A DNA stretch of 64,000 bases from a virus. The stretch covers positions 72,241 to 136,240 of IMG/VR virus record IMGVR_UViG_3300020438_004021; one strand, 5' to 3'. Both the position numbers and the translations under genes were made by a program. Shown in pieces: positions 1 through 45,442 of the stretch. A model generated the notes under the pieces. The model did not search any database and was not told the DNA's origin. It worked only from the letters and a program-made list of their open reading frames with translations. How positions within the stretch are numbered: position 1 is the stretch's first letter; each line of letters starts with the position of its first letter.

Positions 1-382
1 TAATCTTCTTCTTAGCACCTGCGTCTATTGCGGTAGTCATACCGTGACCGGCTACGATTCGTATTTCCGAACCATAGTGCCTGGTCAACCGCATAATATG
101 ATGTTTATATAGGGTGTCTTCTTTACAACCACCGACGGCTACTACACACTTAATCCCATACTCTTTCGCTACTTTTGCTATAATGGCACTTTGTGGGCTA
201 TGGACCGAACTTGCGGTTACAACCCCACCATTGTGGTTCTCGATTATGTCATCTCTGATTTCATCGAATAGTTGTACTGCCTGCCTTACCTTACCACCAT
301 TGATATGGTTGATTCCGTATGGGGCATATAAATCATCCCTCTTGTAGTATACGTCGCCATGTTTTTGGATAGGGGTCATCAT
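1..382 (-). CDS. PLP-dependent fold-type II enzyme (ACC deaminase/D-cysteine desulfhydrase-like), 3' end outside the window
   Basis: Not in the ORF track. Manual translation from ATG 382 gives MMTPIQKHGDVYYKRDDLYAPYGINHINGGKVRQ...VVTASSVHSPQSAIIAKVAKEYGIKCVV, matching the TP...KRDDL...GGKVR (PLP lysine) pattern. Frame stays open to the window edge. Confidence 0.75.
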   Translation of the reverse strand, partial: MMTPIQKHGDVYYKRDDLYAPYGINHINGGKVRQAVQLFDEIRDDIIENHNGGVVTASSVHSPQSAIIAKVAKEYGIKCVVAVGGCKEDTLYKHHIMRLTRHYGSEIRIVAGHGMTTAIDAGAKKKI

Positions 383-666: not shown

Positions 667-2049
667 ATGGCAACCAAGCAATCGAGACAAAATAGAGCTG
701 ACTTCATCAAAGCGATGAAGGAGGCAGGACTTACTTCACCTGTCACCCGTGAACAGGTCAGGGAAGTCTGCGATTCCACGGGCATCTATGCGGTTCCGCC
801 ATCATGGATTACGTACGATGCTTCCCGCAAGACCGGTGCTCTCGGCGAGTACCACATCCCAGAACTCTCCGAAGGTGCTACCACAACCGCACCCGCCAAG
901 GAGGCAGCACCCATGACTGCTACTATCGTCACCAATAAGGTGAAAACCGCTGATGTCTGCGATACCACTATGGCACTCGCAATGACTGGTGGTGAGAGCG
1001 AGACTCTCGTCCCAGAGCGAATCAGCACTTACGTTCCTTGGGGTCACTTCAAGGACATCGAGCAAATCATTCGTGCGAAGATGTTCTACCCTTGCTTCAT
1101 CACTGGTCTGTCCGGCAACGGCAAGACCACGATGGTTGACCAGGTTTGTGCGAAGCTCAAGCGAGAGCTGTTCCGCATCAACATCACTACTCAGACCGAT
1201 GAGGACGATTTGCTTGGTGGTTTCCGTCTCATCAACGGTGAGACCAAGTGGTGTGATGGTCCTGTCGTGAAGGCGATGAAGCAGGGTGGAATTCTTCTCC
1301 TCGACGAAATCGACCTTGCGTCACATGCAATCATGTGCCTGCAGCCGGTTCTGGAAGGCAAGGGTGTCTTCCTCAAGAAGATTGGTCAATGGGTCAAGCC
1401 CGCAGCCGGTTTCCAGATTTTCGCTACTGCCAATACCAAGGGTAAGGGCAGCGATGATGGTCGGTTCATCGGGACCAACGTTCTCAATGAGGCATTCCTC
1501 GACCGATTCTCAGTTTGCTTTGAGCAGGCATACGCTCCCAAGAAGGTGGAGCAGAAGATTCTCACCAAGGCGATGCAATCGCTCGACTGCGAGGACAAGG
1601 ACTTCACCAAGAAGCTGGTTGACTGGGCAGACATGATTCGTAAGTGCTTCTACGAGGATGCGGTTGATGAAATCATCACCACACGCCGTCTGGTCAACGT
1701 TGCTACGGCATTCTCCATCTTTGGTGACCGTGCCAAGGCAGTTGAGATGGCAGTCACCCGATTCGATGACTCCACCAAGGAGGCCTTCCTCACGATGTAC
1801 GGCAAGATTGATGCCGACACCATCGTGGGCGAGGAGGAGATGGAGGTGGTCGACTACGAAACCGCAGAACGTTTCGACATTGACGTGTCTTTTGACGACA
1901 AGGACGAAGCGAAGAGACTGGGTGCTAGGTGGGACGTTCCCAAGAAGCAGTGGTATGTCGAAGGCGACAAGTACCGCAAGAATCCCGAAAGATGGGTAAG
2001 ATGGAATCCGGTAGCCGTTTCTACCTCCTCCACTCCCGCACCGTTTTGA
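667..2049 (+). CDS. cobS: CobS/MoxR-family AAA+ ATPase with C-terminal DUF5710-like domain
   Basis: Walker A GLSGNGKT, Walker B LLLDEID, ATANTKGKG..GRF..LNEAFLDRF typical of T4-like phage CobS; C-terminal VSFDDKDEAKRLGARWD..KKQWYV resembles DUF5710. Confidence 0.9.
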   Translation: MATKQSRQNRADFIKAMKEAGLTSPVTREQVREVCDSTGIYAVPPSWITYDASRKTGALGEYHIPELSEGATTTAPAKEAAPMTATIVTNKVKTADVCDTTMALAMTGGESETLVPERISTYVPWGHFKDIEQIIRAKMFYPCFITGLSGNGKTTMVDQVCAKLKRELFRINITTQTDEDDLLGGFRLINGETKWCDGPVVKAMKQGGILLLDEIDLASHAIMCLQPVLEGKGVFLKKIGQWVKPAAGFQIFATANTKGKGSDDGRFIGTNVLNEAFLDRFSVCFEQAYAPKKVEQKILTKAMQSLDCEDKDFTKKLVDWADMIRKCFYEDAVDEIITTRRLVNVATAFSIFGDRAKAVEMAVTRFDDSTKEAFLTMYGKIDADTIVGEEEMEVVDYETAERFDIDVSFDDKDEAKRLGARWDVPKKQWYVEGDKYRKNPERWVRWNPVAVSTSSTPAPF

Positions 2050-2093: not shown

Positions 2094-2231
2094 ATGAAAG
2101 AATTTTTGATGTGGTGTGAGGATAAAGGCTACTATGAGTGGTCTGACCTCAAAGACGACTACGAGTGGGTCGGAGGTAAGACTCATTCAGAAGCAATGAG
2201 TGAATGGATGAAAGAGGAGGTTGGAGGATGA
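2094..2231 (+). CDS. Small hypothetical early protein (probably leaderless)
   Basis: ATG 8 nt after the -10 element, 45 aa, ATGA overlap with the next gene. Confidence 0.6.
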   Translation: MKEFLMWCEDKGYYEWSDLKDDYEWVGGKTHSEAMSEWMKEEVGG

Positions 2232-2482
2232 TAGTGCTTGATGATTTTGATACCCAAATCCAGTGCGAGGATTATTGGTATGATGACTACGATGGCATCC
2301 CCACAGATGACATCATCGATGACGATGATGAGGACGTTCTCGATGATACTGATGAACACGACGCTGTTTGGGATGACGATGATGAAGATGGCTTCGTAAG
2401 CACTCTGATTGACGGAAATGGGATTACCGCCGAAGGTTATAACTACCTTCATGAACTTGATACCAATGGTTACTTTGTTTGA
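2228..2482 (+). CDS. Highly acidic small protein
   Basis: GGAGG SD; 84 aa with about 31 D/E and no K/R. Confidence 0.75.
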   Translation: MIVLDDFDTQIQCEDYWYDDYDGIPTDDIIDDDDEDVLDDTDEHDAVWDDDDEDGFVSTLIDGNGITAEGYNYLHELDTNGYFV

Positions 2483-2496
2483 AGGAGAAAATCAAA

Positions 2497-2820
2497 ATGA
2501 ATAGTAACACACCTAACCCAGAATGGGCATATGACAACCTCACCGAATCACAGAAGCGTTATGTGGAAATGATTCTTACACACGGACCAGACCTAGGTGT
2601 AGACTGCACCAAGGGTTCATTTTGTCGTGCCGAGCTGCGAGCGGTATCTCGCTCGTTTAAGACAAATGATGACATTCCTAACTGGATTGTTAAGACCAAG
2701 GAACGCAGAGCAGATGTGGGTGTCTATTACGTGCCTGAAGTTGCAGAGCACCAAACCCATGTCCTAGGTGAGCAACCATCAGATGTCGAGGTTGAGACAA
2801 TGGAAGAAGTAGCCGTCTAG
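2497..2820 (+). CDS. Hypothetical protein resembling the N-terminal domain of the CobS-like ATPase
   Basis: AAGGAG SD; RAELRAV..IPNWIVK..RR..GVYYVPEV aligns by eye with REQVREV..PPSWITY..RK..GEYHIPEL. Confidence 0.75.
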   Translation: MNSNTPNPEWAYDNLTESQKRYVEMILTHGPDLGVDCTKGSFCRAELRAVSRSFKTNDDIPNWIVKTKERRADVGVYYVPEVAEHQTHVLGEQPSDVEVETMEEVAV

Positions 2821-2832
2821 TACGGTGGTTAA

Positions 2833-2905
2833 AGGCTGGTAGCTCAGCGGTTAGAGCACCCGACTCATAATCGGTTAGTCGTCGGTTCGAATCCGACCCA
2901 GCCTA
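2833..2905 (+). tRNA. tRNA with CAT anticodon (Ile2-like or elongator Met)
   Basis: Acceptor AGGCTGG/CCAGCCT, D arm TAGCTCAG..AGAGC, loop CT-CAT-AA, T loop GGTTCGAATCC; no encoded CCA; GACTCATAATC arm resembles Ile2. Confidence 0.9.
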
Positions 2906-2918
2906 TTTGGAGAACAAA

Positions 2919-3104
2919 ATGGAAATCACACAAGAGCAGGCAAATAAGTTTTTGAACTGGTTACGAGAAAGTGGTAAGACTAACATGTTTGGTGCTACCC
3001 CCTACCTGCAGAAAAAGTTTAAAATCAACAGGTATGATGCACAAAGGTTTCTTATCAACTGGATGGACATGGACAATTTCGACAAGGACAAGACCCAAGG
3101 ATGA
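2919..3104 (+). CDS. Hypothetical protein
   Basis: GGAG SD; LRESGKTNMFGATPYL is a motif I recognise from small phage proteins. Confidence 0.75.
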   Translation: MEITQEQANKFLNWLRESGKTNMFGATPYLQKKFKINRYDAQRFLINWMDMDNFDKDKTQG

Positions 3105-3454
3105 ACACAGACCACCCATATTCCAACCATGCTGGTCATAAGGTATGGTCCCTGATTAAGGATGGGGCCGTTTATGTTTTCAGACAGTATTATGAAGGTG
3201 GAAAGATTGAGATATGTGAGCCGGATGGTGAGGTACTCAAATTGACTGCTGAGCATGCTAGGGTGGTCTGGGAAACCCTAATCAGCTACGGATTCGTGGT
3301 CCAGAATGCATGCCATCACTGGGGTATGGATGAATTCAACAAGATGAAGAGAGAAGAAGAAATGAAATCTGTCTACCAACTTGGTAATAGGAAAGACAGA
3401 AGGAAAAAAGAATGGTTCGACAAGGTACTCAAAAATTATGCACTGGAGGCATGA
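3101..3454 (+). CDS. Hypothetical protein
   Basis: ATGA-coupled ORF in a tightly packed early operon. Confidence 0.7.
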   Translation: MNTDHPYSNHAGHKVWSLIKDGAVYVFRQYYEGGKIEICEPDGEVLKLTAEHARVVWETLISYGFVVQNACHHWGMDEFNKMKREEEMKSVYQLGNRKDRRKKEWFDKVLKNYALEA

Positions 3455-3455
3455 A

Positions 3456-3719
3456 ATGAACGACAACCACCCCACAACTACTTTTGTCCTTAGTGACGCA
3501 ATCGATGCACTTCGTACCTCTGAGGAGAGGATGCAGGACCCCTTTGCACCAATCGAGCAGATGGTCGGAATGTTGCAGGCAACTCTGGCAATCATCATGA
3601 GGCTTACCAGCAGTTACGACGAGTCGAACTTCACTGGTGAAGAGATTGATTTGGTACACAGGGTAACTACATTGGCATCTGAAATCACGAACGAAATGTT
3701 CACCGGAGAGAACCCATGA
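3456..3719 (+). CDS. Hypothetical protein
   Basis: GGAGG SD upstream of ATG 3456. Confidence 0.7.
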   Translation: MNDNHPTTTFVLSDAIDALRTSEERMQDPFAPIEQMVGMLQATLAIIMRLTSSYDESNFTGEEIDLVHRVTTLASEITNEMFTGENP

Positions 3720-3993: not shown

Positions 3994-4308
3994 ATGAAAA
4001 TCATCGTTGAAGAAGAGTATGGTTATCGTTACTGGGTGTGGGAGCTTAAGGCATCCTCTAGGGTTGGTGTTGAAAGACACTTTAGTAAGACGACAGGTGC
4101 ATCGGGAGACGATTATTGGTATTGTACTGGAAAACCAGAGGACCACTTCACAATCGGCGAGTGGAAGCAGGTGGAGTTTCCAGAATACAAGGTCATGGTT
4201 GATAAAGATGATTATGATGCGGCTGCTCACATTCATCAGAACGATGACAGTTGGATTAGTTTTAGGGACGACCCAGTACACTGTATAGACACAGGAGAGG
4301 ACGTTTAA
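3994..4308 (+). CDS. Hypothetical protein
   Basis: Operon packing. Confidence 0.65.
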   Translation: MKIIVEEEYGYRYWVWELKASSRVGVERHFSKTTGASGDDYWYCTGKPEDHFTIGEWKQVEFPEYKVMVDKDDYDAAAHIHQNDDSWISFRDDPVHCIDTGEDV

Positions 4309-4889
4309 TGGCATTTAAAGTATTTGACGATTTCATCGATGAAGGATACCGAGACTTAGTAGAGAATATGATGCTTAACACGCACTGGATGTATCAAAAG
4401 CATATGGATTATGACAATGATAAGGTTCTGGTAGATGGTGCTGACTCCTATTCTCAGTTTTCAAGTGTCATTTTTCACCACGGTTCCGTTAGTAACAACC
4501 ACCTTCATGGCATCTTACTTCCAATGGTTAGTAAGGTGATTAATGAAGAGCTTAAAGGTTACGACCTAGCGAGGTCCAGAGCGATACTTCAGGTTCCTAA
4601 TGTAGCGAGACCCGAAATGTATGTGCCTCACATAGACTTCGATAGTAGATACATTATGAGCGTAATTTATTATGCTTGTGACTCTGACGGGGATACCGTA
4701 CTCTTCGAAGAATCTGGATTTGACGTTAGTATGGAGGATAGAGGAGAACATAGTTTCAAAGAGGTGGATAGGGTCTCCCCCAAGAAGGGCAGACTGGTGA
4801 TTTTTCCCTCAGACGAGTACCATTGTGGTTCTCCTCCCTCCAAGTCCAACAGAATGTTGGTTAATTTTAATTTTGAAAGGAATGCATGA
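4308..4889 (+). CDS. 2OG-Fe(II) oxygenase superfamily protein
   Basis: HxD (PHID), IYY..DSDGDT, PKKGRLVIF, distal His (EYH), R.LVNFNF. Confidence 0.85.
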   Translation: MAFKVFDDFIDEGYRDLVENMMLNTHWMYQKHMDYDNDKVLVDGADSYSQFSSVIFHHGSVSNNHLHGILLPMVSKVINEELKGYDLARSRAILQVPNVARPEMYVPHIDFDSRYIMSVIYYACDSDGDTVLFEESGFDVSMEDRGEHSFKEVDRVSPKKGRLVIFPSDEYHCGSPPSKSNRMLVNFNFERNA

Positions 4890-6609: not shown

Positions 6610-7045
6610 ATTCAAGTCTTTTGATGGGTTCACTCCCATTGAAAGACATTCTTGACAAGTGAATAGAATATAAGTGCATTGGGATTAATTACCTCGATGC
6701 CGGACGGTGACAGAATATTTTTCGTTACTGAAGATAATGTATGCAATTCCTCGTGGTAAGGTGCGAATGCTCAAATGAGTGAAGTAGTCTTTGACCAAGA
6801 CAGTTGCAGTGCGAGTAGGAAATAACCAAACTAGGTAACTCCGAAAGTTGTGGGTATAGTTGAGTCCCATCCGTCCATGAATAACGTCTCAGAAGAGGTG
6901 GTTCGAGTCCACCCATTAGGGCTGCAGTCAGACCCTGTAGTGTATGTCAGAGTTCAGCACGCTGAGACAGGATTTTCCGAGGTTGTGTGGGGTGGAGCAG
7001 GGTGGTTGACTTTCTAGTTTGACAGCTCCCCCACACAACCTTTTA
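6610..7045 (+). ncRNA. Candidate large structured ncRNA (ROOL/GOLLD-like?)
   Basis: No credible ORF; nested helices 6616-6628/6635-6647, 6702-6707/6871-6876, 6886-6892/6962-6968; T-loop hairpin 6897-6913; 13-bp terminal stem 6980-6992/7029-7041 followed by Ts; close to tRNA-Lys. Confidence 0.55.
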
Positions 7046-7201
7046 ATCTACCGTTCTAAAGGAGACCTGCTATGGAGACCTAGGATTTTATTAATAAGAT
7101 AGGATTTTAATATTATAGCACGTCAATTGACAGACTCAAAACAGCAACCGAACGAAGTTAACTGGTCTTCCTATCGTTCGGTATTAAAGACCAGCGTTCT
7201 G

Positions 7202-7226
7202 ACCCCGTACGATAACGGGGTTTTTT
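7202..7226 (+). terminator. Rho-independent terminator
   Basis: ACCCCGT-acgata-ACGGGGT followed by a T run. Confidence 0.8.
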
Positions 7227-7232
7227 CATATA

Positions 7233-7315
7233 CCCCCTCCTGATATCTAGAAAACGCTATATCCCCTCCTGATATCGAGAAGGTACTTGACAGGAGGTCA
7301 AAGCCATGATCTAAT
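7233..7315 (+). promoter_or_regulatory. Early promoter preceded by two CCCCTCCTGATATC boxes
   Basis: Boxes at 7234-7247 and 7263-7276; TTGACA(7287)-17-TCTAAT(7310). Confidence 0.85.
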
Positions 7316-7338
7316 GGGTGGAGTAAAAGGAGATATGG

Positions 7339-7530
7339 ATGGCAAAACGAGTATGGGACAGATTTGACGAAGAAGCCGAGAGAGAAGGAGCCGCCTTCAC
7401 CAAGCAGGTAGTCACCCAAATTATAAAAGGTGGGGGTCGTGAAGGCAAGAAAATCCGAAAGCAGAGAAGCGGCATCCAAGCTGCTCTTAACCGTTCTGAA
7501 ATGCGTATTATGAGGAAATATCTAGTATGA
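7339..7530 (+). CDS. Small basic hypothetical protein
   Basis: GGAG SD downstream of the promoter. Confidence 0.7.
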   Translation: MAKRVWDRFDEEAEREGAAFTKQVVTQIIKGGGREGKKIRKQRSGIQAALNRSEMRIMRKYLV

Positions 7531-7742
7531 GTAAGTCTTGCCTAGACTGTGGAACCAATATTCCAGAAGCACGTTTGAGTGCAGTACCCGACACAGACTA
7601 CTGCGTGGGTTGTGTCGACAAGAATTCAAAGCCGGTTGTAGCCAGGTTGATTTTCAATCACAAGACAGCTGGTGAAGTATTCATCGCCAAGGGAAAAGAG
7701 AATGTGAGAATCCTAGAGAGGGAGTACTCAAGGGGCAGGTAA
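7527..7742 (+). CDS. TraR/DksA C4-type zinc-finger protein
   Basis: CxxCG..IP.ARL..VP....CxxC. Confidence 0.85.
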   Translation: MSKSCLDCGTNIPEARLSAVPDTDYCVGCVDKNSKPVVARLIFNHKTAGEVFIAKGKENVRILEREYSRGR

Positions 7743-7748
7743 TATTCT

Positions 7749-7756
7749 TATAAATA
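7749..7756 (+). promoter_or_regulatory. T4-type late promoter
   Basis: Intergenic TATAAATA. Confidence 0.7.
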
Positions 7757-7774
7757 ATTTCAGAGGGACTCCCA

Positions 7775-8038
7775 ATGAAGATTGTGAAAGTGACATGGAT
7801 AGATGCTGAAGAATATGGTGAAATTGGTTGGAATTCTCTTAAATCGATGAAAACCTATGCCAAGAAGCCATGCCCCACTATGACTAGTGTTGGGCATGTT
7901 CTGTATGAAGACGATAATCACATATCACTAATCAGTACCGTTGGTGAAAAAGAGTCCAGCAGTGTAGACAAAATTCCCAAGAGTTTCATTAATAAGATAG
8001 AAGAACTTACTGAAAAGGTGAATGAAAAAGATGCCTAG
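7775..8038 (+). CDS. Hypothetical protein
   Basis: V.V.WIDA...GW...SVG pattern I recognise from small phage proteins. Confidence 0.7.
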   Translation: MKIVKVTWIDAEEYGEIGWNSLKSMKTYAKKPCPTMTSVGHVLYEDDNHISLISTVGEKESSSVDKIPKSFINKIEELTEKVNEKDA

Positions 8039-8324
8039 TTATGAATACGCCTGCAAAGAATGTAAAGAAGTTTGGGAAGAAGTCAGAAAAATATCTGATT
8101 GTATGATACCCACTAACAAGAAGTGCCCACACTGTGGTGCTAAAAGAGGCAGCATCTACCGTCACTTCAGTTCTGCACCATCAATGAAGATGGATGCCAA
8201 TATGGATTTAACAAAACCACACAACCATGGTGGATTCCAAGATGCGATGAGGAGAGTCGCGAATGCACCTGGTGTTAAAGGTACAAAATATGCGGACAAA
8301 ATCAATGAAAAGCATATTAGTTGA
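8031..8324 (+). CDS. FmdB-family zinc ribbon protein
   Basis: MPSYEYACKEC...CPHCG. Confidence 0.85.
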   Translation: MPSYEYACKECKEVWEEVRKISDCMIPTNKKCPHCGAKRGSIYRHFSSAPSMKMDANMDLTKPHNHGGFQDAMRRVANAPGVKGTKYADKINEKHIS

Positions 8325-8395
8325 CAATATCATCAGCAACCGATAAATACAAGTACACAACCAACCAAAACGTTTTATTATGAAGGAGTTTCGTT

Positions 8396-9469
8396 ATGAT
8401 TGAGTCTGGTAAGGTGAATTTTCTTATTGATGGACAGTGGGGAAGCACTGGCAAGGGCAAACTTGCCGGTTACATGTATAGCAGATTTAAGAATCTGAAC
8501 ATGGCAATCAGTGATAATATGCCAAATGCGGGGCATACCTTTACACGCGATGGTAAGAACTTCATCTTTAAGGCCCTTCCTACCGGAGTTTTGTTCGATG
8601 AAGTGACATCTTTAATCGGTCCACAGGCAGTGATGGGTGAAGAGCAGTTCCAATATGAAATGGAGATGGTGAAGAACGAAATAGGTCACTATCCCAAGGT
8701 AATCATCCACCCAATGGCAACCGTTGTAACCGCCAGTGACAAAGATGCTGAAGCAGGAATCGTCAGCAAAATGGCAAGTACGGGTCAGGGTTCTTGTTCC
8801 GCTACCGTTAAGAAGATGTGGAGACGAGGAGAGGCAAACCTCGCCAAGAACAGCAAGGTGTTTGATGAATTCGTCGGTGATACCCATTCCTTCCTTCATG
8901 AAGGACTTAAGAAGGGTGGTGCTGCACTTTCGGAAGGTAGTCAAGGTTTTGACCTTTCAATGAATTGCGGACATGCCTACCCACACACGACGTCACGCGA
9001 TTGCTTGATCGGGAGAATGATGGACAATGCAGGATGCCCAGTCAAGTCTGTAGGTAGCATAATCGCTTGTCTAAGGACACTGCCAATTCGCGTTGGAAGC
9101 ACTGAGAACACGAGCGGTCCTTACTACGACGACCAGAATGAAATCGACTGGAAGACGGTATCCGATATGTGTGGTCATGATGTAGAAGAAAGAACTACAG
9201 TGACCCAGAGAGTTCGTAGAGTATTTACATTCTCGGAAGAACAGACTAGGAAGTTCTGCGAATTTGTTCGTCCGGATTATGCATTCCTTAACTTCGTTAA
9301 CTACTATAAGGAAGAGGGAGACCGACTCAATGCTGTCTCTGAAGTAGCGACAATTCTGGGTGAGTACGGTTGCGACCTTACACTACTAGGTACTGGTGCT
9401 GGACTAGACGATATGGAAATGACCAGCAACGAGCAAATCCTAGGCAAGCAGGAAACACTTTTTGCATGA
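8396..9469 (+). CDS. purZ: PurZ, N6-succino-2-amino-dAMP synthase (PurA paralog)
   Basis: GSTGKG (PurA has GDEGKG), NMPNAGHT, IHPMATV, STGQGS, EGSQG, YPHTTSRD, PIRVG..SG.Y.DQ.E..W, TTVTQRVRRVFTFS, FLNFVNY (PurA has TKLD); 357 aa. Confidence 0.9.
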   Translation: MIESGKVNFLIDGQWGSTGKGKLAGYMYSRFKNLNMAISDNMPNAGHTFTRDGKNFIFKALPTGVLFDEVTSLIGPQAVMGEEQFQYEMEMVKNEIGHYPKVIIHPMATVVTASDKDAEAGIVSKMASTGQGSCSATVKKMWRRGEANLAKNSKVFDEFVGDTHSFLHEGLKKGGAALSEGSQGFDLSMNCGHAYPHTTSRDCLIGRMMDNAGCPVKSVGSIIACLRTLPIRVGSTENTSGPYYDDQNEIDWKTVSDMCGHDVEERTTVTQRVRRVFTFSEEQTRKFCEFVRPDYAFLNFVNYYKEEGDRLNAVSEVATILGEYGCDLTLLGTGAGLDDMEMTSNEQILGKQETLFA

Positions 9470-10020
9470 TTCAGCACTGCGTAATAGGACAGGCTGGTAG
9501 TGGTAAGTCCACATTCATAGAGAAGAAATTCCCTAGGGACGAACACATCTTCTTTGATACGGGTAGCATGCTTAGAAGCATGTTTACCTGTCTCAAGGGG
9601 GAACAGACTAGCAAGAACGTTTGGGATTTTGCAAATCCGTTGGTATATAGTGTTTACAAGCAGTGCTGCACTGTTTCAGAGAACACCGGTTATGAGTTCA
9701 TAACTGACGGTTTCCCTAGGAACTCATCTCAAGTTAAGAATATGCATATGTTTTTGACTTCTCTACCCCATAGCAATTCTATCATATTCCATATGCTGGA
9801 CATTTCAGAAGAAGAGCAGATTAGGAGGATAGAGAAGAGAAATGGAAAGATGAGCGACTATCATATTGATAGGATATCACAGTCTAGGAGAGACTTCGAG
9901 TCTGTATTGGATGAACTAGACAGGATTATGAGTAGCAGCACTGCGAACAGAACCTTAATAGAGATAAAGTGGTATAAGCAAGAAGATGGTGATTTCGTTC
10001 TGGACAGAAGTTATAAATAG
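9466..10020 (+). CDS. Adenylate kinase-like nucleoside monophosphate kinase
   Basis: P-loop GQAGSGKST, TGSMLR, DGFPRN..Q; ATGA overlap with the purZ stop. Confidence 0.85.
   Translation: MIQHCVIGQAGSGKSTFIEKKFPRDEHIFFDTGSMLRSMFTCLKGEQTSKNVWDFANPLVYSVYKQCCTVSENTGYEFITDGFPRNSSQVKNMHMFLTSLPHSNSIIFHMLDISEEEQIRRIEKRNGKMSDYHIDRISQSRRDFESVLDELDRIMSSSTANRTLIEIKWYKQEDGDFVLDRSYK
10012..10019 (+). promoter_or_regulatory. T4-type late promoter
   Basis: TATAAATA just upstream of the AGGAG SD. Confidence 0.7.
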
Positions 10021-10035
10021 TCAGGAGATTTACCT

Positions 10036-10587
10036 ATGGCATCATTCAACTATGAAATTCCAGACGAATACTTAGAAAATGCATCCGACTTCGGGTTTAC
10101 TACGGTAGACTCCGATGCTGTAGAACAACAAGAAAGAGATGTAGCCGAAGAAGTAGCGGGTGAAATATCATCAAATCTTATTGGTCAGATTAGCACCAAG
10201 ATTAGCGGTCTAGAAGGAAAAATCAATTCTGTCCTTCTTAAAATGCAAGATGAAACAGATGAAGACAATGTAGCAGGTGAAATAAATCTGGTTAGGATAG
10301 AAGAGAAGATAGATAAGATTCTTGCTATGGAAAATGAAGAACTTGCCAGTAGCATACAAGCACAAGGTGAGAGCATCCGTGCAGTCATAGATGAAGTAGA
10401 AGAGAGAAAAAGCACACTAGAAGACCAATACCTAGATAAAATGAAGGAAATTGAAAAACTGGTCTTACCTCTATTGGTTAATCTGACCAAGAATCCAGAA
10501 AGAGAGTACCTCTTCTGGCCTGATAGGTCTGAAAAAGTCAATAAGCAGATAGGAAAAGTCCTTTCTATTACAAGAAATGCCGAATAA
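10036..10587 (+). CDS. Coiled-coil hypothetical protein of T4-like phages
   Basis: DFGFTTVD...LPLL.NL.KNPE..Y..WP.R motif. Confidence 0.75.
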   Translation: MASFNYEIPDEYLENASDFGFTTVDSDAVEQQERDVAEEVAGEISSNLIGQISTKISGLEGKINSVLLKMQDETDEDNVAGEINLVRIEEKIDKILAMENEELASSIQAQGESIRAVIDEVEERKSTLEDQYLDKMKEIEKLVLPLLVNLTKNPEREYLFWPDRSEKVNKQIGKVLSITRNAE

Positions 10588-11257
10588 AAAATTCACCCAT
10601 CTATCCAATAAGATAACCGAGGATATAGATGCCGTCACCAACAAGGACGGTTCTAGATTCTACCAAGCACCCAATGGTGAGAAATACCCCAGTGTCACCA
10701 CAGTCACTGGTTGGGAGAAGAAGGCTTTCTTCGCTGAATGGAGGAGGAAGAACCCCAAGGAATCTAAAAGGGTTCTGTCCGTAGGAACCAGTATGCACCA
10801 GGTAGTAGAAGATTTCTTAGATAATAAAGAAACCTACCTCGATGGTGCATCTCAATCTGCCATTAATCTTTTTCAGTACATGAAGCCTGTCCTGATAGAG
10901 AAGATAGATAATATCAAAGCACAAGAAGTCGCCCTATGGAGTAGTTTATTGGGGTTGGCAGGAAGGGTGGATTGTGTTGCTGAATATGATGGTAAGTTGT
11001 CCATCATAGATTTTAAGAGCAGCAGAAGAGAGAAGAAAGAAGAATATATAGGCAACTACTTCGCTCAGGCTACCGCATATGCCATAATGTGGAAAGAGTT
11101 AACTGGTGAGCAAATAGACCAGATAGTTATACTGATATCTTGTGAAGATGGTAGTGTCCAGCAATTCATAGATAAACCAGTAAATCACGTAAAAACGCTC
11201 AAAGAGATGATAGACAAGTACTATCAGAGTCAGGCACTATCGGAGTATTTAGGTTAA
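10577..11257 (+). CDS. PD-(D/E)XK exonuclease
   Basis: YPSVTTV, GT.MH, AGRVDC, IIDFKSS, YF.Q..AYA. Confidence 0.9.
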   Translation: MPNKKFTHLSNKITEDIDAVTNKDGSRFYQAPNGEKYPSVTTVTGWEKKAFFAEWRRKNPKESKRVLSVGTSMHQVVEDFLDNKETYLDGASQSAINLFQYMKPVLIEKIDNIKAQEVALWSSLLGLAGRVDCVAEYDGKLSIIDFKSSRREKKEEYIGNYFAQATAYAIMWKELTGEQIDQIVILISCEDGSVQQFIDKPVNHVKTLKEMIDKYYQSQALSEYLG

Positions 11258-12474
11258 GACCTAGGGACGGTTCTCTTAAAAGTGACATCGATACACGGTC
11301 TAAAGTCTACACGACTATCATTCACCGAATATATCTCCATCATGTGTCTCCAATGGGTGTAATACCCATCTAGAGAACCTTGACCATCTACATGCTCGGT
11401 ATTGGTATCATCGTTGCCAATGAACACCATTCTCAGATCTCCCGTTCTGCTATCTATGCAATCCTGAACGAGAGAAGTAACATCCACCTTGACCTCAGGG
11501 ACCGCAGGTATCGTTCCTAGAGAACCTGCGATTCTCACCCTAGCACCACCTACTGATGGTTTTATCCCTATCATGGCTCCGGTTGTGATTCCACCACCAG
11601 TATCTAATGTAACACCCGTTTCATCACCAGTTCGTCCTGCATCGTCGTCAGGACCTATAGTAACCCCATTGCTGGTATCGTCGTCAGGTTGGTCTGGGAG
11701 TTCGTTTCCATCCCCAAATGGTTTCACACCTAACCAACAATGTCCCAATGGGCTGGCATTCGTTATGTCGGCTGAATTGGTAGCACCAGAAGAATCTCCA
11801 CCGCTTGAACCCCAATAGGCATCAGCAGTTGGAGCACCTTTGAAATGATACCAACCCATAGTATCCATAGAACCAGCAGTCCACCCATTGCTAGCGCCTT
11901 GAACGTTAGCATTCCTAGTACCTCTATAAATGCAATATATTCTGTCTGCTATTGCATAAGTAGCACCACCATCATAGAAGGGTACGTGGTGACCCCATAC
12001 TTTATGGATTTTAAGACTTAATGTAGCACTAACGATGGTATCTCCACCTGTCAGTCCATAAGTTCCACCACCACCAGGATCTGTTGGGTCGTTTGGATTA
12101 CCTGGTGGACCCCAGTCGCTGACATTGGTGTACCAAAAAATTCTAGCAGCTGGAGTTGCTAATTCATAAGCATCACCGAATTCTTGTTCTCCCCACATAT
12201 CTTTGGTCATATAATATCTGGCAGCCGCTCCCAGTTGGAGAATGGCATCAGAACTAGCACCCAATGCTGTCCTATGTAGGTGGAAATCGTTGAAGTAAGT
12301 CTGAGATGTGGGTCCAGTAGCACCATCAATTATTTGTATATCTCGAACATAGGTGTCTTCGTTAGGGTAAAGTCTCACCTTAGCGGTTACTTCAGTCCCA
12401 CCGTCACCACCATCATCTGGTTTGTTGACTTCAGCCTGTCTTCTTTTAGTTAATCTGTGCCTTGCTCGACTCAT
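11254..12474 (-). CDS. Putative virion protein with DNRLRE-like domain
   Basis: EDTYV...IVSATLSL...DVTSLVQ...RPCIDVTF pattern; G/T-rich. Confidence 0.55.
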   Translation of the reverse strand: MSRARHRLTKRRQAEVNKPDDGGDGGTEVTAKVRLYPNEDTYVRDIQIIDGATGPTSQTYFNDFHLHRTALGASSDAILQLGAAARYYMTKDMWGEQEFGDAYELATPAARIFWYTNVSDWGPPGNPNDPTDPGGGGTYGLTGGDTIVSATLSLKIHKVWGHHVPFYDGGATYAIADRIYCIYRGTRNANVQGASNGWTAGSMDTMGWYHFKGAPTADAYWGSSGGDSSGATNSADITNASPLGHCWLGVKPFGDGNELPDQPDDDTSNGVTIGPDDDAGRTGDETGVTLDTGGGITTGAMIGIKPSVGGARVRIAGSLGTIPAVPEVKVDVTSLVQDCIDSRTGDLRMVFIGNDDTNTEHVDGQGSLDGYYTHWRHMMEIYSVNDSRVDFRPCIDVTFKRTVPRS

Positions 12475-13389: not shown

Positions 13390-13611
13390 TTGATTGAGGA
13401 TGGTATTGATTTTTGTAAGGACGTTGAAAAACTGATTTTGAACGACACCTTTGACAATTATATTGATGCTGTCCTGCATCTTTGTGATGATAAAGGGATT
13501 GAGCCGTTCGTCGCAGCCAGGATGCTAAGCAAACCGATAAAAGAGAAAATAAAAAAGGAGGGGCAGGAGATAAATCTGCTCCCCAGAAAAACACGGCTAC
13601 CAATAAAATAA
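13390..13611 (+). CDS. 33: Late transcription coactivator gp33
   Basis: YIDAVL..C...IEP....LSKPIKEKI..E....NLL; lies upstream of gp32. Confidence 0.8.
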   Translation: MIEDGIDFCKDVEKLILNDTFDNYIDAVLHLCDDKGIEPFVAARMLSKPIKEKIKKEGQEINLLPRKTRLPIK

Positions 13612-13615
13612 TATA

Positions 13616-13644
13616 TTGACAAGAGAATACCCATGTGGTATAAT
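13616..13644 (+). promoter_or_regulatory. sigma70-type promoter of gp32
   Basis: TTGACA-17-TATAAT with extended TG. Confidence 0.9.
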
Positions 13645-13689
13645 GGAATTTGAAACGAAACGCAGTAATACAATACAAGGAGAAATATT

Positions 13690-14592
13690 ATGAGTTTCAG
13701 TAGTATGAAAAAGTCTTCGGGAGACAACACGAAGCTGTTGGATGAATTGAGTAAGATTTCATCTGGAGACAAGGCAAGTTATAAAGACGATAGATTCTGG
13801 AAGCCTGAACGAGACAAGTCCGATAACGGGTTTGCCGTAATTCGGTTCCTTCCTCCAGTAGAAGGTGAGGATTCACCTTGGGTTCGAATGTTCTCACATG
13901 GATTTAAGGGTCGAGGTGGTTGGTACATCGAGAATTGCCCAACTACAATCGGTCGCAAGTGTCCTTTGTGTGAGGCAAACAGCGAACTATGGAACAGTGG
14001 ACTTGAGACCGATAAGGATGTAGCAAGAAACCGCAAGCGAAGACTTAACTACATCTCAAATATTCTGGTGGTAAGTGACCCCAAGAATCCAGACAACGAA
14101 GGTAAGGTCTTCCTCTACAAGTTCGGCAAGAAGATTTTTGATAAGATTATGGAATCTCTTCAACCAGAATTTCAAGATGAAGAGGCGATTAACCCATTCG
14201 ACTTCTGGAAGGGTGCTAACTTCAAGTTGAAGGTCCGTAAGGTAGCAGGATTCATCAACTATGATAAGAGCGAATTTGACATTCAGTCTGAGATGTTCGA
14301 TGGTGATGATGGGAAGCTGGAAGAATTGTGGAAGAGTCAGTACCCTCTTCAACCACTAGTAGCACCCGACCAGTTCAAGAGTTATGATGAACTGAAGGCA
14401 CGTCTGATGCAGGTACTTGGTGGTGGTAACTCTAATATCGCTACCTCTGCTGATGAGGTCACCAACGAAGATGTAAAGAAGGTCGCCGAAGAGCAGTTTG
14501 GTACTAATAAAGAAGAGACTGTTTCTTCTAGTGAACCAAAAGAAGAGACCGATGCACTAGCATACTTTGAGAAACTAGCACAAGAGGATTGA
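13690..14592 (+). CDS. 32: Single-stranded DNA-binding protein gp32
   Basis: DDRFWKP..DK..NG.AVIRFLP, WYIENC, FDFWKGANFKLK, acidic tail. Confidence 0.97.
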   Translation: MSFSSMKKSSGDNTKLLDELSKISSGDKASYKDDRFWKPERDKSDNGFAVIRFLPPVEGEDSPWVRMFSHGFKGRGGWYIENCPTTIGRKCPLCEANSELWNSGLETDKDVARNRKRRLNYISNILVVSDPKNPDNEGKVFLYKFGKKIFDKIMESLQPEFQDEEAINPFDFWKGANFKLKVRKVAGFINYDKSEFDIQSEMFDGDDGKLEELWKSQYPLQPLVAPDQFKSYDELKARLMQVLGGGNSNIATSADEVTNEDVKKVAEEQFGTNKEETVSSSEPKEETDALAYFEKLAQED

Positions 14593-14622
14593 TTATTCTT
14601 TAGTATTTTGTTATGCCTCTTG

Positions 14623-14660
14623 TTGGGGGTGGGTACTTTGAAAAAGGTGTCCACCCCCAA
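14623..14660. terminator. Hairpin terminator between convergent genes
   Basis: TTGGGGGTGGGTAC...GTGTCCACCCCCAA stem. Confidence 0.75.
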
Positions 14661-14668
14661 TGCTTATA

Positions 14669-16201
14669 TCAGGCGATAATTGGGAAGGGTTTGAGGAATG
14701 AAGGGTCTTGTAATACCATAGGTGGTGCTGTGAAGGTATTATTCTCGTTGTTAATGAAGGTGTTGACGCTATTTGAAGATGGAGCGGGTGGACCAACAAA
14801 ACTTGGTTGGTTGGCATAACCTTGTGTAGCATCTGCTTTCTGTTGTTGATCTCTAAGGTCCGTCCCACTTTGGGCGGGTCTCCTAGCGGCTAGCATCGCT
14901 TCTCTTTCGGCCCTCATTGAATCTCTTGCTGCTTTTCTAAGTTGCCTTTCTTTCTCTCTTGCTTGCTTTCTAGCCTCCATCTCCTCTAGTTGTTGCTTCT
15001 CTAGATCAGCATCTTCTTTTTCCAATCTTGCTGTTCTCTCTTTTCTGATCCTTCTCAACTCATCCAGACCAGCCTGTTGTTCTGCAGCAAAATCGTCTCC
15101 TACTAAGAAGTCTCCTAGGGTGGTTGAGTTAATGTAGTTAGTAATTCCGACTTGAATTTCTGCTATTTTCTCTACTAAGAAATAACCGAAATCCATGAAG
15201 AGTCTACCGAACCCCTTGGCGAATCCTATTAATGTGTTCCCCACTGCAACACCCAGTTCAAATATTACTGAACCGATTGTCTTACCTAAGTCGACCACGA
15301 AATCCAGCATGTTCCCAATCAGACCTGACTCGCCTTCTCCAGAGAACCAGCTTATCACACCGTCTATCATATCTCTGATTGCGTTAGGTAACGTGAACTG
15401 GAAGAAGAATGATAGATTATCTCCAAGGATTCCTATATAGTAGGGTACATTGGTGGCAATCCAGTCTATCGCCATTCCACCATACTCAACTATGCCGTTT
15501 AAGATTCTACTCATATTCTCTTGGAATCCAGCCCTTATGTCAATCAGACCAAATGTAAGAGAAGAGACGAAACCGTCTAAGAATGCTAGAAGTACTTCAG
15601 ATATAGTACCTCCTGACTCATATTCACGGAAGGCTGCTATTCCACCCTCGATTGCACCTATTAGTAGTGTCAGAGGGAAGAATACCTTACCAAATATCTT
15701 GCCAACGGTCTTGAACACACCCAACACTTTGCCAAATATTGGGAATACAGCAGTTAATCCTGCTACCAGTTTACCAGGTCCCTTTATTATCTTACCTATG
15801 AAACCAAATATCTGACTGAATACAGGAATCTTATTGCCTATCTGCGTGATTAGACCAATCACTTTAGCAATACCAGGAACCTTCATGAATGCACCTATCG
15901 CTGGACCCACGAATCCGGCAATTAGTGCTGCACCCATTGCAGGCAGTGCTAGCAGTGCGGCTGCTATCCCCTTAGCAAGTGTGCTCGGTTTCACTTTCAT
16001 CATACTCTTAGGGGCAGACAAGATACCTGTCATCTTGGAAAAGAGACTGGAGAAGAAAGCATTTTGCTCTCTTTGATTTTCTTTGTCTTTGAGCTTATCT
16101 TCTTTGCCTTGTTCCTTAATGGCATCTGTTACCTCGGCGTTCCCTTTTTGGATCGCCCAAGCAAGTTTCATTACTTCTGATTTTAAGCCTTTTTCTGCCA
16201 T
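14669..16201 (-). CDS. Tape-measure-like protein (gp29-like)
   Basis: 510 aa, helical with amphipathic/hydrophobic segments and coiled coil; directly downstream of gp26/gp51. Confidence 0.65.
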   Translation of the reverse strand: MAEKGLKSEVMKLAWAIQKGNAEVTDAIKEQGKEDKLKDKENQREQNAFFSSLFSKMTGILSAPKSMMKVKPSTLAKGIAAALLALPAMGAALIAGFVGPAIGAFMKVPGIAKVIGLITQIGNKIPVFSQIFGFIGKIIKGPGKLVAGLTAVFPIFGKVLGVFKTVGKIFGKVFFPLTLLIGAIEGGIAAFREYESGGTISEVLLAFLDGFVSSLTFGLIDIRAGFQENMSRILNGIVEYGGMAIDWIATNVPYYIGILGDNLSFFFQFTLPNAIRDMIDGVISWFSGEGESGLIGNMLDFVVDLGKTIGSVIFELGVAVGNTLIGFAKGFGRLFMDFGYFLVEKIAEIQVGITNYINSTTLGDFLVGDDFAAEQQAGLDELRRIRKERTARLEKEDADLEKQQLEEMEARKQAREKERQLRKAARDSMRAEREAMLAARRPAQSGTDLRDQQQKADATQGYANQPSFVGPPAPSSNSVNTFINNENNTFTAPPMVLQDPSFLKPFPIIA

Positions 16202-16202
16202 T

Positions 16203-16394
16203 TTACATTCCTATTTTGCTTTTCGCTAATCTCTCGTTTTCCTCTTGGATATGATTGCTCAATAAAGTTATATATATTTGTCTTTCCCAAGGTATCATAT
16301 TTTCTATCTCTGTAATAGAATACTTATGATGTTGTGCCATTGCAAAATTGGTCTGATAGAACCCTATCAAGGTGTCATGGAAAAGACTTACACG
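16203..16394 (-). CDS. 51: gp51-like baseplate hub assembly protein; -1 frame continuation of gp26
   Basis: Not in the ORF track. Translates RVSLFHDTLIGFYQTNFAMAQHHKYSITEIENMIPWERQIYITLL...; YxTNF..QHHKYS..EIENMIPWER is the gp51-like signature. Confidence 0.85.
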   Translation of the reverse strand, partial: RVSLFHDTLIGFYQTNFAMAQHHKYSITEIENMIPWERQIYITLLSNHIQEENERLAKSKIGM

Positions 16395-17098
16395 AAAAAA
16401 TCCTGAATCGACTCCAACACCAACTCATTTCTGGTATCGCATTTACCACAAGTAAATGATGCGTCATGCTTCATTGAAGGCATGGTCTCGAAGAATTTCT
16501 GAATCTTCAAAAATTGGTCTTGATTAAGACTTTCAACGAATTCATTTAAGTCTGAGTCTGAATAATCTTTCGCATTATATACTTTATCGGAGTCATATAT
16601 CTTATCGATGCAAGAGTTTACCAACCTAACGGGGTCTTTTGTTATGACTTCTCTGGTGGATTCATCAATAGTCATTCCGAAGGTAGGATATTTCATAACC
16701 ACACCTATTTCTTCCGTAAGTTGTATCTTGCTGTCATGATCATCTACCATGTTCATTTTGACACTTTCTATGTCTATATTCAGGGTATAATCATTTTTGC
16801 AATTCTTACATGGCATCACTACCTTGATGGTCTCACCTATAGACTTAGCCCTAAGGTTGAGGAATAGGTATTCTACATCAAAAGTGGGTAGGTCTTTAAC
16901 CCTAGTACCATCTCTGAAGTCTACACAGTCTTCTAATATGCTACTAATCGCATTGGTCATCTGACTTTCATTGCCAGACTCCACTGCCATCAGCAGGATT
17001 TTCTCTTCTTTCACCAGAAACGGTCTATACTTTACTTCCATATTATTAGATGGTAGTTTCAAAGTATATTCTGGTGTTGCTAGTTTAGGTAATGCCAT
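16388..17098 (-). CDS. 26: Baseplate hub subunit gp26
   Basis: MALPKL..P.Y.L.LPS...YRPFLVKEEKILL, FD.EYLFL.LRAKS.GE, FFETMP. Confidence 0.92.
   Translation of the reverse strand: MALPKLATPEYTLKLPSNNMEVKYRPFLVKEEKILLMAVESGNESQMTNAISSILEDCVDFRDGTRVKDLPTFDVEYLFLNLRAKSIGETIKVVMPCKNCKNDYTLNIDIESVKMNMVDDHDSKIQLTEEIGVVMKYPTFGMTIDESTREVITKDPVRLVNSCIDKIYDSDKVYNAKDYSDSDLNEFVESLNQDQFLKIQKFFETMPSMKHDASFTCGKCDTRNELVLESIQDFFV
16394..16400 (-). other. Putative -1 ribosomal frameshift slippery site T TTT TTC
   Basis: gp26 ends GAT TTT TTC GTG TAA; the -1 frame is open for 63 codons. Confidence 0.7.
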
Positions 17099-17124
17099 TC
17101 AATTCATCTCCTTATAATAAATCA

Positions 17125-17880
17125 TCACGAGAACCAATTACTGAAGTTGCCAAGATTCACCTTGGTAACCTTCTTATTCACCACTGCTCCAGCGTCTGCG
17201 AATCTCTCTATGACCTGAGAGTAGTTAAACGGATTTCCATATTTTCCACCCAATATTCCGACATCATTTATGAGAGAGCCTGCGCTGTCATCAAATTCTC
17301 TCACCGCATCTATGTCATATAAGAACTCTTCTGCAACTGCCAAACCGAAGTTTACAATCGTGGGCACATACCTTCTGAATGAGAGTGTCATTGTCTGTTG
17401 GGCAACTTCGTTGCCCCCCTGATTGGTGAACTCCACTTCTGATACTGCTTTAGGGAACACTTCTTCTAGTCGTATCCTATATATCGGCATGTCGAATTCG
17501 TTGAGAACGTACATGAACATGTCACAGGTATAATCTTTGTAATATCCTAGCCTCCCAGTTATTGGGTCGACTATTGTATCTTGCCAAGTTTCAAATATTC
17601 TTCTTTCCCATAAGTCCTTAGCGAGGTAGAAAGATAAGTTCACCTCACCCGAATATAGCGGTTCATAGGGAATCTCCCTTTGGGGACCGGATGAGTTCCT
17701 GTCTGGTGTAGTTGCTATCGATCTACCCGGCAAGGTCATCGAAGTACACATTAGACTCAGCCTGTTTCCTAGTGCTAAGTCAGCAATACCTAATATACCC
17801 GAGAATTCTATTAGATACTTGTTAGGTGCAAAAACACCGAACTTTTTAATATTTGCTATCATTCTGTCTATTCTTGGCAT
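17125..17880 (-). CDS. Tail tube initiator / gp19-fold protein (gp54-like)
   Basis: LMC....LPG, ER..FE.WQ..I, YY.DY, L.E.FPK. Confidence 0.75.
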   Translation of the reverse strand: MPRIDRMIANIKKFGVFAPNKYLIEFSGILGIADLALGNRLSLMCTSMTLPGRSIATTPDRNSSGPQREIPYEPLYSGEVNLSFYLAKDLWERRIFETWQDTIVDPITGRLGYYKDYTCDMFMYVLNEFDMPIYRIRLEEVFPKAVSEVEFTNQGGNEVAQQTMTLSFRRYVPTIVNFGLAVAEEFLYDIDAVREFDDSAGSLINDVGILGGKYGNPFNYSQVIERFADAGAVVNKKVTKVNLGNFSNWFS

Positions 17881-17893
17881 ATCTACCTCTTTT

Positions 17894-17912
17894 TATTTAT
17901 ATTTTATTTATA
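17894..17912 (-). promoter_or_regulatory. Tandem T4-type late promoters
   Basis: TATTTATA on the + strand at 17894-17901 and 17905-17912. Confidence 0.7.
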
Positions 17913-18508
17913 CTGTCTACCCATACTTTAGTGTCACTAGCACCCACAAAAGATTCTGTTGGAAGATAAATTGCGGTGGTCCAGTCCGAAGGATTTATGA
18001 AAAGCATGTTAGATACTACTCTCTTCCTAAGGTATCTCTTGTAGCATGGTTTGAACCATTTGAATCTTCTACCTCTGATTAGAATATCATAGGTTACCTT
18101 AAATCTGGTGGTCTCATCATATCTATCGTTGTTAGTTATGTCTAAGAGTCTGATTAACAACTGCTGCCTGGCAACGTGAGGAAGATAATGCAGGTTGAGG
18201 CCATGAATGTATTTTCTGTCCCAGCCTAAAGTTATGACTAGAGGTAGTCTGTCGTAATAAGGCAGTGTGTTCTTTCCCTTGGGGCTATATGCGAACATAT
18301 ACATCTTGCCAGATTTCCTAGTGGCAGGACCTTCCATTTCACCAAATTCTTTGATACCAACTTTACTTTTACCGAAGAGTTCCCCAACTTTATCCCTATA
18401 CCACTGCCAGGACGACTTCTGTTGGGGGTCTGCTCCTTGGGAAGGCCTTTTATTATCTAATAATGCTAGCGATGTTATCCTAGAAATGGGCGATGGTTTC
18501 TTTGCCAT
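17897..18508 (-). CDS. 2: DNA end protector gp2
   Basis: Y.PK.K..LPYYD..PLV...GLNLHYLP, W..AIYLPTE.F. Confidence 0.92.
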   Translation of the reverse strand: MAKKPSPISRITSLALLDNKRPSQGADPQQKSSWQWYRDKVGELFGKSKVGIKEFGEMEGPATRKSGKMYMFAYSPKGKNTLPYYDRLPLVITLGWDRKYIHGLNLHYLPHVARQQLLIRLLDITNNDRYDETTRFKVTYDILIRGRRFKWFKPCYKRYLRKRVVSNMLFINPSDWTTAIYLPTESFVGASDTKVWVDSINKI

Positions 18509-20313: not shown

Positions 20314-20316
20314 TAA

Positions 20317-45431: not shown

Positions 45432-45442
45432 CATCGGGCAGT

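Follow-up and report, generated by a model that had tools for sequence, protein, structure and literature searches.

Can a large phage of the T4 type, replicating with a family-B polymerase, make the deoxynucleotide of 2-aminoadenine (dZ) for its DNA? This question is raised by a purZ homologue in a stretch of viral DNA of 64,000 nucleotides (here called the window), which comprises positions 72241-136240, i.e., the 3' part, of the IMG/VR record IMGVR_UViG_3300020438_004021 (136,240 bp in total; the whole record is termed G000 below). We consider it probable that this gene encodes a functional PurZ-type succino-aminodeoxyadenylate synthase, and that a complete T4-like marine myovirus here possesses a working dZ-nucleotide pathway with a new set of helper enzymes. 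In the available literature, Z-genomes are described only for small Siphoviridae and Podoviridae with PolA or PrimPol replication and with DatZ/MazZ or DutZ/DmtZ as helpers.

The purZ homologue (window 8396-9469, plus strand) is a single uninterrupted open reading frame (ORF) for a protein of 357 aa (P0001), and a Shine-Dalgarno sequence, GAAGGAG, can be read 8 nt upstream of it (window 8382-8388, plus strand). An earlier inspection of the letters (the sequence-only reading) had described a PurA-fold protein of this length with a distinctive set of motifs; the ORF is confirmed as intact, and every motif is found in its translation: GSTGKG at residues 16-21, NMPNAGHT at 41-48, IHPMATV at 104-110, TTVTQRVRRVF at 267-277 and NFVNY at 299-303. 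This combination is far beyond chance. The product matches Pfam PF00709 (Adenylsucc_synt) at 6.3e-27 and PHROG 1211 ("2-aminooxy adenylosuccinate synthetase") at 4.7e-61. Its best PDB match is the PurZ of phiVC8 (6FKO/6TNH; 6.8e-55, 189.8 bits, residues 6-343), followed by S-2L PurZ (105.9 bits, 2.3e-29), an archaeal PurA (87.6 bits, 8e-24), the PurZ0-type 7VF6 (75.6 bits, 3.5e-20) and Escherichia coli PurA (52.4 bits, 4e-13). The NCBIfam models give the same top family, with 211.7 bits for PurZ (NF038379) against 137 bits for archaeal-type and 112 bits for bacterial PurA.

The residues that separate PurZ from PurA were compared by aligning the query with sequences from annotated records, namely those of seven PurZ and four PurZ0 proteins of phages and that of E. 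coli PurA (EcPurA). S17 of the query aligns with S14 of VpPurZ and D14 of EcPurA (Met = 1), i.e., the catalytic Asp of PurA is replaced by Ser; the available text of PMC12884076 describes this Asp13 as catalytic and 99% conserved in the PurA group. Likewise, the GTP-base motif TKLD of PurA reads FLNFVNY in the query, as in ATP-using PurZ. The general catalytic residues K20, N44, H47, T129, R143, Q183, T199 and R274 are kept. A preprint (bioRxiv 10.1101/2025.10.22.683976, in the part available) assigns F12 and T262 of VpPurZ to dGMP's 2-amino group and F295 and Y298 to the adenine ring of ATP, and T267, F300 and Y303 of the query are identical to the last three of these in the alignment.

These positions bear on the alternative that the enzyme uses another substrate, a ribonucleotide or another 6-oxopurine nucleotide, so that its product would not be dZMP. 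The query belongs to a subclade that is distinct from all characterised PurZ proteins, it has W15 in place of F12, and G145, S256 and T278 differ from VpPurZ, all of which would suit such a shift. Against this, four of the five residues to which the available part of the same preprint gives a role in recognising dGMP or ATP are unchanged, P230, Y244 and W252 are identical too, and the neighbours of these genes are deoxynucleotide enzymes of the Dut or dUTPase_2 type. We therefore regard a different substrate as very improbable.

The phylogeny supports a PurZ assignment. A careful IQ-TREE analysis, with E. coli PurA as the root, used 47 rows: 12 references, the query and 34 metagenomic sequences picked across the score range among the 120 matches listed. 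The query falls into a clade of eight rows (100/99), which is placed within PurZ (99/91) and apart from PurZ0 (100/99), so that the relationship to PurZ expected by the sequence-only reading, as opposed to PurA or PurZ0, is borne out. Residues, the ranking of profile models and phylogeny together support the interpretation of the protein as PurZ-like rather than PurA-like or PurZ0-like. The query shares with the PurZ of phiVC8 and other Z-cluster phages its fold, its length, the Ser of GSTGKG and the motifs NMPNAGHT, PIRVG, TTVT-RVRRVF and FLNF-NY, and, when PurZ0 and PurA serve as the comparison, both belong to one PurZ clade, with the query in a sister subclade. Unlike in the Z-cluster phages, the backbone around the query gene is a T4-like genome of 136 kb with a family-B polymerase. 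The small size that had been assumed for known Z-phages agrees with the records: among the matches listed (105 INPHARED rows of 211-213 records), all PurZ-like records are of at most 89 kb.

The T4-like character of the phage is evident from its gene content. G000 encodes gp55, gp47, gp46, gp45, gp44, gp62 and RegA as well as a family-B polymerase (gp43), UvsX and gp41. A gp32-type single-strand DNA-binding protein (window 13690-14592, plus strand; phrog_224, 8.8e-114) and a block of morphogenesis genes in T4 order, namely TerL, sheath, tube, portal, protease, scaffold and major capsid protein (window 48833-58728, plus strand; PHROG matches of 2e-66 to 8e-201), lie within the window. Comparison of the major capsid protein with its counterparts in four cultured Kyanoviridae (HTVC008M, C48C1, Mosig, Melnitz) gives identities of 52-54% (53.5% for the Pelagibacter phage HTVC008M). 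The purZ region itself is flanked by a T4-like backbone gene, an exonuclease of phrog_298 (window 10577-11257, plus strand; 1.7e-60), which is found in all seven compared genomes. Judged by its core replisome, gp55 and the T4-order morphogenesis genes, the phage, which is uncultured, is a T4-like myovirus, in agreement with the family-B gp43 and gp55 which the sequence-only reading had predicted. It shares a T4-like core, gene order and a size class of 132-164 kb with the pelagimyophages and other Kyanoviridae (HTVC008M, Mosig, Melnitz, C48C1).

The completeness of the record matters for every gene that is missing from it. CheckV rates G000 as 75% complete. Two sister records, G001 (136,012 bp) and G002 (126,210 bp), are circular permutations of G000: homologues of its last genes, g152 and g153, directly precede those of its first genes, g1 and g2, in both sisters, and by synteny the ends of G001 fall within a single gene of G000. 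Since the ends of G000 are adjacent in both sisters, the record represents an essentially complete, circularly permuted genome of about 136 kb and not one of 75%. The possibility that known partners of PurZ are located in a missing quarter of the genome was ruled out on this ground.

No recognisable member of the known partner set was found. Six-frame searches of G000 and its sisters with hidden Markov models (HMMs) detected no HD (PF01966), YfbR-like (PF12917) or HD_3 (PF13023) domains, no MazG (PF03819), DUF550 (PF04447), DUF5664 (PF18909) or dUTPase_2 (PF08761), and no NDT (PF05014), for which the control phages likewise gave no match. Positive controls behaved as expected: the DatZ and MazZ of phiVC8 and SH-Ab 15497 were recovered where present, the ZP6 control was found, and dUTPase_2 was detected in G006. 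PF01966 is a poor probe for DatZ because the DatZ of SH-Ab gives no match to it, and its use as the only probe was dropped in favour of a custom HMM together with PF12917 and PF13023. The custom models, one for DatZ and one for MazZ-2/DUF550, retrieved every training sequence as well as two controls kept out of training and detected nothing in G000-G003 (best E 0.4); in tblastn searches of the genome with DatZ, DpoZ/PolA, primase and neighbour proteins of phiVC8 and SH-Ab 15497, PurZ was the sole match. The statement of the sequence-only reading that no datZ, mazZ or dpoZ is seen in the window is thus confirmed, and it extends to all 136,240 bp, with working controls for DatZ and MazZ. In the available text of PMC8342488, the Z-cluster is datZ-mazZ-purZ; mazZ is said there to be "always co-conserved", and every carrier is one of the Siphoviridae or Podoviridae. 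By its gene content the present phage falls outside this definition.

The lack of these enzymes invites the alternative that PurZ is active, with dZ replacing adenine only partly or not at all. The main effect of the pathway may then be to deplete dGMP or dATP, or to provide a decoy nucleotide that counters the defences of the host, and the family-B polymerase, with dATP not kept out, would yield A/Z hybrid DNA at most. A complete genome without DatZ- or MazZ-type enzymes is what this alternative would predict, an RTPR-like reductase should supply dATP, and a second T4-like lineage (G007, see below) has PurZ without kinase, PurB, DatZ or MazZ. In contrast, PurZ0 phages lack DatZ and use Dut-like dATP/dGTP hydrolases, as far as described in the available text of PMC12884076; G000 encodes a homologue of Dut as well as an NDT-like protein; and the upkeep of three or four dedicated genes argues for a high flux. 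We consider a partial or missing replacement unlikely.

In place of datZ and mazZ, the gene that accompanies purZ is a kinase gene. An adenylate-kinase-like nucleoside monophosphate (NMP) kinase of 184 aa (window 9466-10020, plus strand) has its ATG overlapping the TGA of purZ in the form ATGA, an arrangement that indicates translational coupling of the two genes. The protein matches Pfam ADK (PF00406; 7.5e-8, 33.1 bits, cut-off 26.8) and stays short of the NCBIfam adk equivalog (38.6 versus a cut-off of 168), which sets it apart from the orthologues of cellular Adk. In the numbering of E. coli Adk, 40/40 or 39/40 clade members retain the P-loop, R36, DGFPR88, Q92, R123 and R167; Q92, R36 and R88 are also kept in all 19 more distant cassette kinases and are invariant in 59/59 overall. 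Gln92 presumably contacts the 6-amino/N1 edge of the adenine in AMP. A tblastn search with the kinase against 50,697 phage records gave no match, and an index of 5.8 billion proteins yielded no more than 39 clusters of relatives, with identities of 41% or higher; the source contigs of 11 of these clusters are equal in size to those of PurZ clusters. It lies directly downstream of purZ in all seven close loci that extend far enough. On the other side, purZ is preceded by a gene for a Zn-ribbon protein of 100 aa (window 8022-8324, plus strand; Pfam Zn_ribbon_8, 1.8e-9), a homologue of which stands upstream of purZ in 8/8 close loci and for which tblastn found no match in any of four PurZ-less relatives. 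PHROG scans of nine small ORFs upstream of purZ mostly gave no match.

The association of purZ and kinase genes is not confined to this phage. A profile scan of IMG/VR detected 551 relatives of PurZ. The top-scoring 80 were combined with earlier loci into a sample of 82 loci, which contains several identical pairs and is biased towards the query. HMMs for the kinase, DatZ and MazZ divide these loci sharply: 36 have the kinase without DatZ or MazZ, in several phage backbones; 37 have DatZ and/or MazZ without the kinase (26 both, 9 DatZ only, 2 MazZ only); nine have neither (one is cut at purZ, one has only 855 bp downstream); and not one of the 82 combines the kinase with DatZ or MazZ. The kinase ORF is located directly downstream of purZ and on the same strand in all 36 kinase loci, 16 of which were outside the HMM training set. 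In all six long forms (L203, L204, L207, L208, L210, L211) the kinase carries a fused NTP-pyrophosphatase domain, dUTPase_2 (PF08761), at its C-terminus, and in other kinase loci a trimeric Dut follows the kinase. The pair likewise occurs in small contigs of PolA-type phages beside Dut or dUTPase_2 genes. Neighbours of this kind point to a deoxynucleotide context of the purZ-kinase pair.

The division recurs in a quick tree of 94 rows, for which the support is SH-aLRT only. Rows of the Z-cluster type form a clade of 42 (97), which holds every PurZ of a named phage except that of Bacillus phage vB_BpsS-140, and hence all experimentally studied ones; the PurZ of ZP6 is an annotated protein and does not count among the studied ones. 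A clade of 28 rows (98) is wholly kinase-type and includes a T4-like group of 10 rows (100), and a mixed group of 13 consists of nine kinase-type rows, three of neither type and one Z-type row. The second T4-like lineage, G007 (L242; 141,960 bp, 32.7% GC), has a PurZ 36% identical to the query (G007 44640-45605), encoded inside the replication module between gp41 and downstream replication genes, with Dut and PolB nearby. Its capsid protein and PolB are 45% and 34% identical to those of G000, and no kinase, PurB, DatZ or MazZ was found in it. PurZ consequently entered T4-like genomes at least twice.

Further purine and nucleotide genes distinguish G000 and its sisters from their cultured relatives. 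All 153 called ORFs of G000 were compared with G001-G003 and with four PurZ-less relatives (HTVC008M, Mosig, Melnitz, C48C1), and family scans were made on the clade-specific genes. PurZ, the kinase, PurB, IMP dehydrogenase (IMPDH), a DUF4406 protein and Dut are all present in G001 and G002, and none of them has a tblastn match in any of the four relatives. PF00709 and PF00406 match in 4/4 clade genomes and in 0/4 relatives above cut-off, the exception being two weak sub-cut-off matches to PF00406 in Melnitz (E of about 0.013-0.015). The adenylosuccinate lyase PurB (G000 2188-3642) is inserted between gp47 and gp46 and scores 331.5 bits with TIGR00928, above the equivalog cut-off of 326.2. PurB homologues are rare in INPHARED (40 records), and 15 of the 40 come from Gordonia, Streptomyces and Acinetobacter phages, genera which also hold PurZ or PurZ0 phages. 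An IMPDH without CBS domains (371 aa, G000 44858-45973) is matched in two stretches by TIGR01302 with 392.9 bits; its interpretation as a GMP reductase, and thereby as a route from G to A, was ruled out by the lower score of 184 bits for that family. A DUF4406/NDT-like protein (G000 10253-10657; DUF4406 1.3e-19, with a weak NDT match of 0.0016) is inserted between gp45 and gp44, and a trimeric Dut homologue (g34, G000 26323-26916) is encoded just upstream of gp43. A clade-specific GlnII-like glutamine synthetase (G000 34094-35179) scores 411 bits, below the cut-off of 500 bits. A homologue 45% identical to it is found directly after purZ in an unrelated contig of 185 kb (L246 11652-12704). G000 also encodes ThyX and an RTPR-like class II reductase. 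The predicted helper set of NMP kinase, PurB, IMPDH, DUF4406 protein and Dut differs from the known one and is mostly encoded outside the window.

The same inventory can be read as an ordinary auxiliary set, in which the branch from IMP via adenylosuccinate and AMP to ADP boosts the nucleotide supply, IMPDH and GlnII serve the guanine and nitrogen side, and the DNA is canonical. In favour of this reading, the genome supplies each component, from PurB and the Adk-like kinase to IMPDH and the GlnII-like glutamine synthetase, and lacks DatZ, MazZ and DpoZ. In addition, adk is reported as an auxiliary gene of the pelagimyophage groups PMP-A and PMP-B in the available text of PMC7029224. The main text of that paper does not mention adenylosuccinate, and HTVC008M, a member of its group A, has no PF00406 match; the reported adk may or may not be the kinase discussed here. 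We nevertheless rate a canonical AMP branch as improbable, because a Ser stands in the place of the Asp that is 99% conserved in PurA, the base pocket is of the ATP type found in PurZ (FLNFVNY for TKLD), the protein nests within PurZ, and elsewhere, in small contigs of PolA-type phages, the purZ-kinase pair has Dut or dUTPase_2 genes as neighbours.

A dZ-nucleotide pathway is most likely, and is the most economical reading of these data. In this pathway, PurZ would join dGMP and aspartate, using ATP or dATP, and the phage's own PurB would remove fumarate from the product to yield dZMP. The coupled adenylate-kinase-like enzyme would phosphorylate dZMP to dZDP, a presumed nucleoside-diphosphate kinase would convert dZDP to dZTP, and the family-B gp43 replisome would place dZTP opposite T. 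The CBS-less IMPDH would feed the guanine pool on which PurZ draws. Control of dATP would be left to enzymes other than DatZ, if it is present at all; candidates for clearing adenine deoxynucleotides without DatZ and MazZ are the trimeric Dut, the DUF4406/NDT-like protein and the use of dATP by PurZ itself. What the analysis shows is the identity of the genes, their residues, their phylogeny and linkage, and the lack of the known partners; the substrates of all these steps, and the entry of Z into DNA, we infer. If the pathway operates as proposed, the phage DNA is expected to carry 2-aminoadenine, to whatever extent.

Several observations weigh against a dZ pathway and have to be considered. 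PurA-like, PurB and Adk proteins together constitute exactly the canonical branch from IMP to ADP. The PurZ score of 211.7 bits is below the NF038379 cut-off of 300 bits, which is a threshold of the model and not a biochemical criterion. The query is only 36-39% identical to the studied Z-cluster PurZ proteins; those in the 94-row tree (phiVC8, SH-Ab 15497, PMBT28) all fall into the sister Z-cluster clade, and the kinase-linked subclade holds no characterised enzyme. W15, at the position of F12 in VpPurZ, is the residue of E. coli PurA, albeit still aromatic. The RTPR-like reductase is present and no dATP-specific hydrolase is recognisable, so dATP should still be made. Homologues of the DUF4406 protein occur in 624 phage records and the protein is therefore not specific. 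The Dut homologue g34 keeps all five dUTPase motifs and is 34-38% identical, over 94-99% of the length, to the Duts of PurZ-less T4-like phages. Its interpretation as a relative of DutZ was unsupported, as it is only 25% identical to the Dut of Ghobes (E 3e-4) and closer to the T4-like Duts. Finally, RNA libraries from a single sample contain short contigs that agree at 99% or more with the 5' part of purZ, the other parts being uncovered and uninformative; these contigs are at most a weak hint of purZ expression, as DNA carry-over is possible.

The logic of the proposed pathway resembles that of the PurZ0 systems of Arthrobacter and Gordonia phages (with DutZ, DmtZ and DUF5664), for which the available text of PMC12884076 reports that DatZ is lacking, as in G000, and that Dut-like and NDT-like enzymes take the place of DatZ and MazZ. 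PurZ0 phages and G000 both have a trimeric Dut-family protein and a protein of the NDT superfamily, and some PurZ0 phages additionally have a PurB-like lyase, such as Streptomyces phage Hiyaa, whose annotation lists this lyase alongside a PurZ0-type synthetase. G000 differs from these systems in that its synthetase is a PurZ, PF05014 is undetected, and its Dut has the low identity to that of Ghobes given above. The main text of PMC12884076 mentions neither a kinase nor PurB. The kinase-linked helper set is most likely a previously undescribed accessory type of the PurZ pathway, as far as gene content can tell.

In its available text, PMC8599892 describes Z-phages as Siphoviridae and Podoviridae, and PMC13128860 states, in the part available, that more than 2000 viruses are predicted from PurZ homology to harbour dZ-DNA. 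The two most recent surveys make no mention of myoviruses, T4-like phages or family B, and a mention of Myoviridae in PMC8515928 concerns an unrelated Alteromonas phage. None of the titles and abstracts among the matches listed places PurZ in a myovirus, an earlier listing, e.g., in supplementary tables, being possible.

Other features of the genome are of more general interest. A CobS-like AAA ATPase (window 667-2049; phrog_249, "porphyrin biosynthesis", 1e-111) is a classic auxiliary gene of marine T4-like phages. The best match of a 193-aa protein (window 4308-4889) is to phrog_274, "DNA endonuclease V" (1.3e-33); families of 2OG-Fe(II) oxygenases give weaker matches, and Mosig is the only compared genome with a counterpart. 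The minus strand encodes two proteins just before and across the window start, namely an enzyme that depends on PLP (PALP) and a protease of the trypsin type (window 1-382 and G000 70954-71712). A protein of 1689 aa (window 35712-40781), matched in four stretches by the unknown-function family phrog_358 (3e-218), is kept in all compared T4-like relatives. A block of about 10 kb (G000 13469-23450, g18-g30) has a counterpart in G002 (46-88% identity), but most of it is missing from G001 and from the cultured relatives; it is flanked by the glycosyltransferase-like genes g17 and g32 and may be a variable surface or host-interaction island. A megablast search of INPHARED with window 7000-12000 gave no match, and a scan of genome contigs detected only relatives of at most 38% identity and no close prophage copy. 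At least 95% of the sampled words of window 8000-12000 are present in 14 public runs from at least 10 studies of viral, marine and estuary metagenomes, 8 of which runs may be assembly sources, and the phage is accordingly geographically widespread.

A more far-reaching possibility, which we advance tentatively and hold to be rather doubtful, is that of a widespread oceanic T4-like clade with a fully or largely ZTGC genome, replicated by gp43 and supplied by PurZ, PurB and a dZMP kinase, in which the cassette would represent a third independent route to Z-DNA. If the dZ pathway proposed here is true, Z-DNA would extend to the family-B replisome and to large genomes, by way of abundant marine T4-like phages. 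PurB and the dedicated NMP kinase would then be two phage-encoded steps that the available literature assigns to the host, and part of the DNA of the ocean virome may be modified, which would bias restriction-based and long-read methods. The clear split between the kinase and DatZ/MazZ provides a marker, easily read from genomes, of a second kind of PurZ system.

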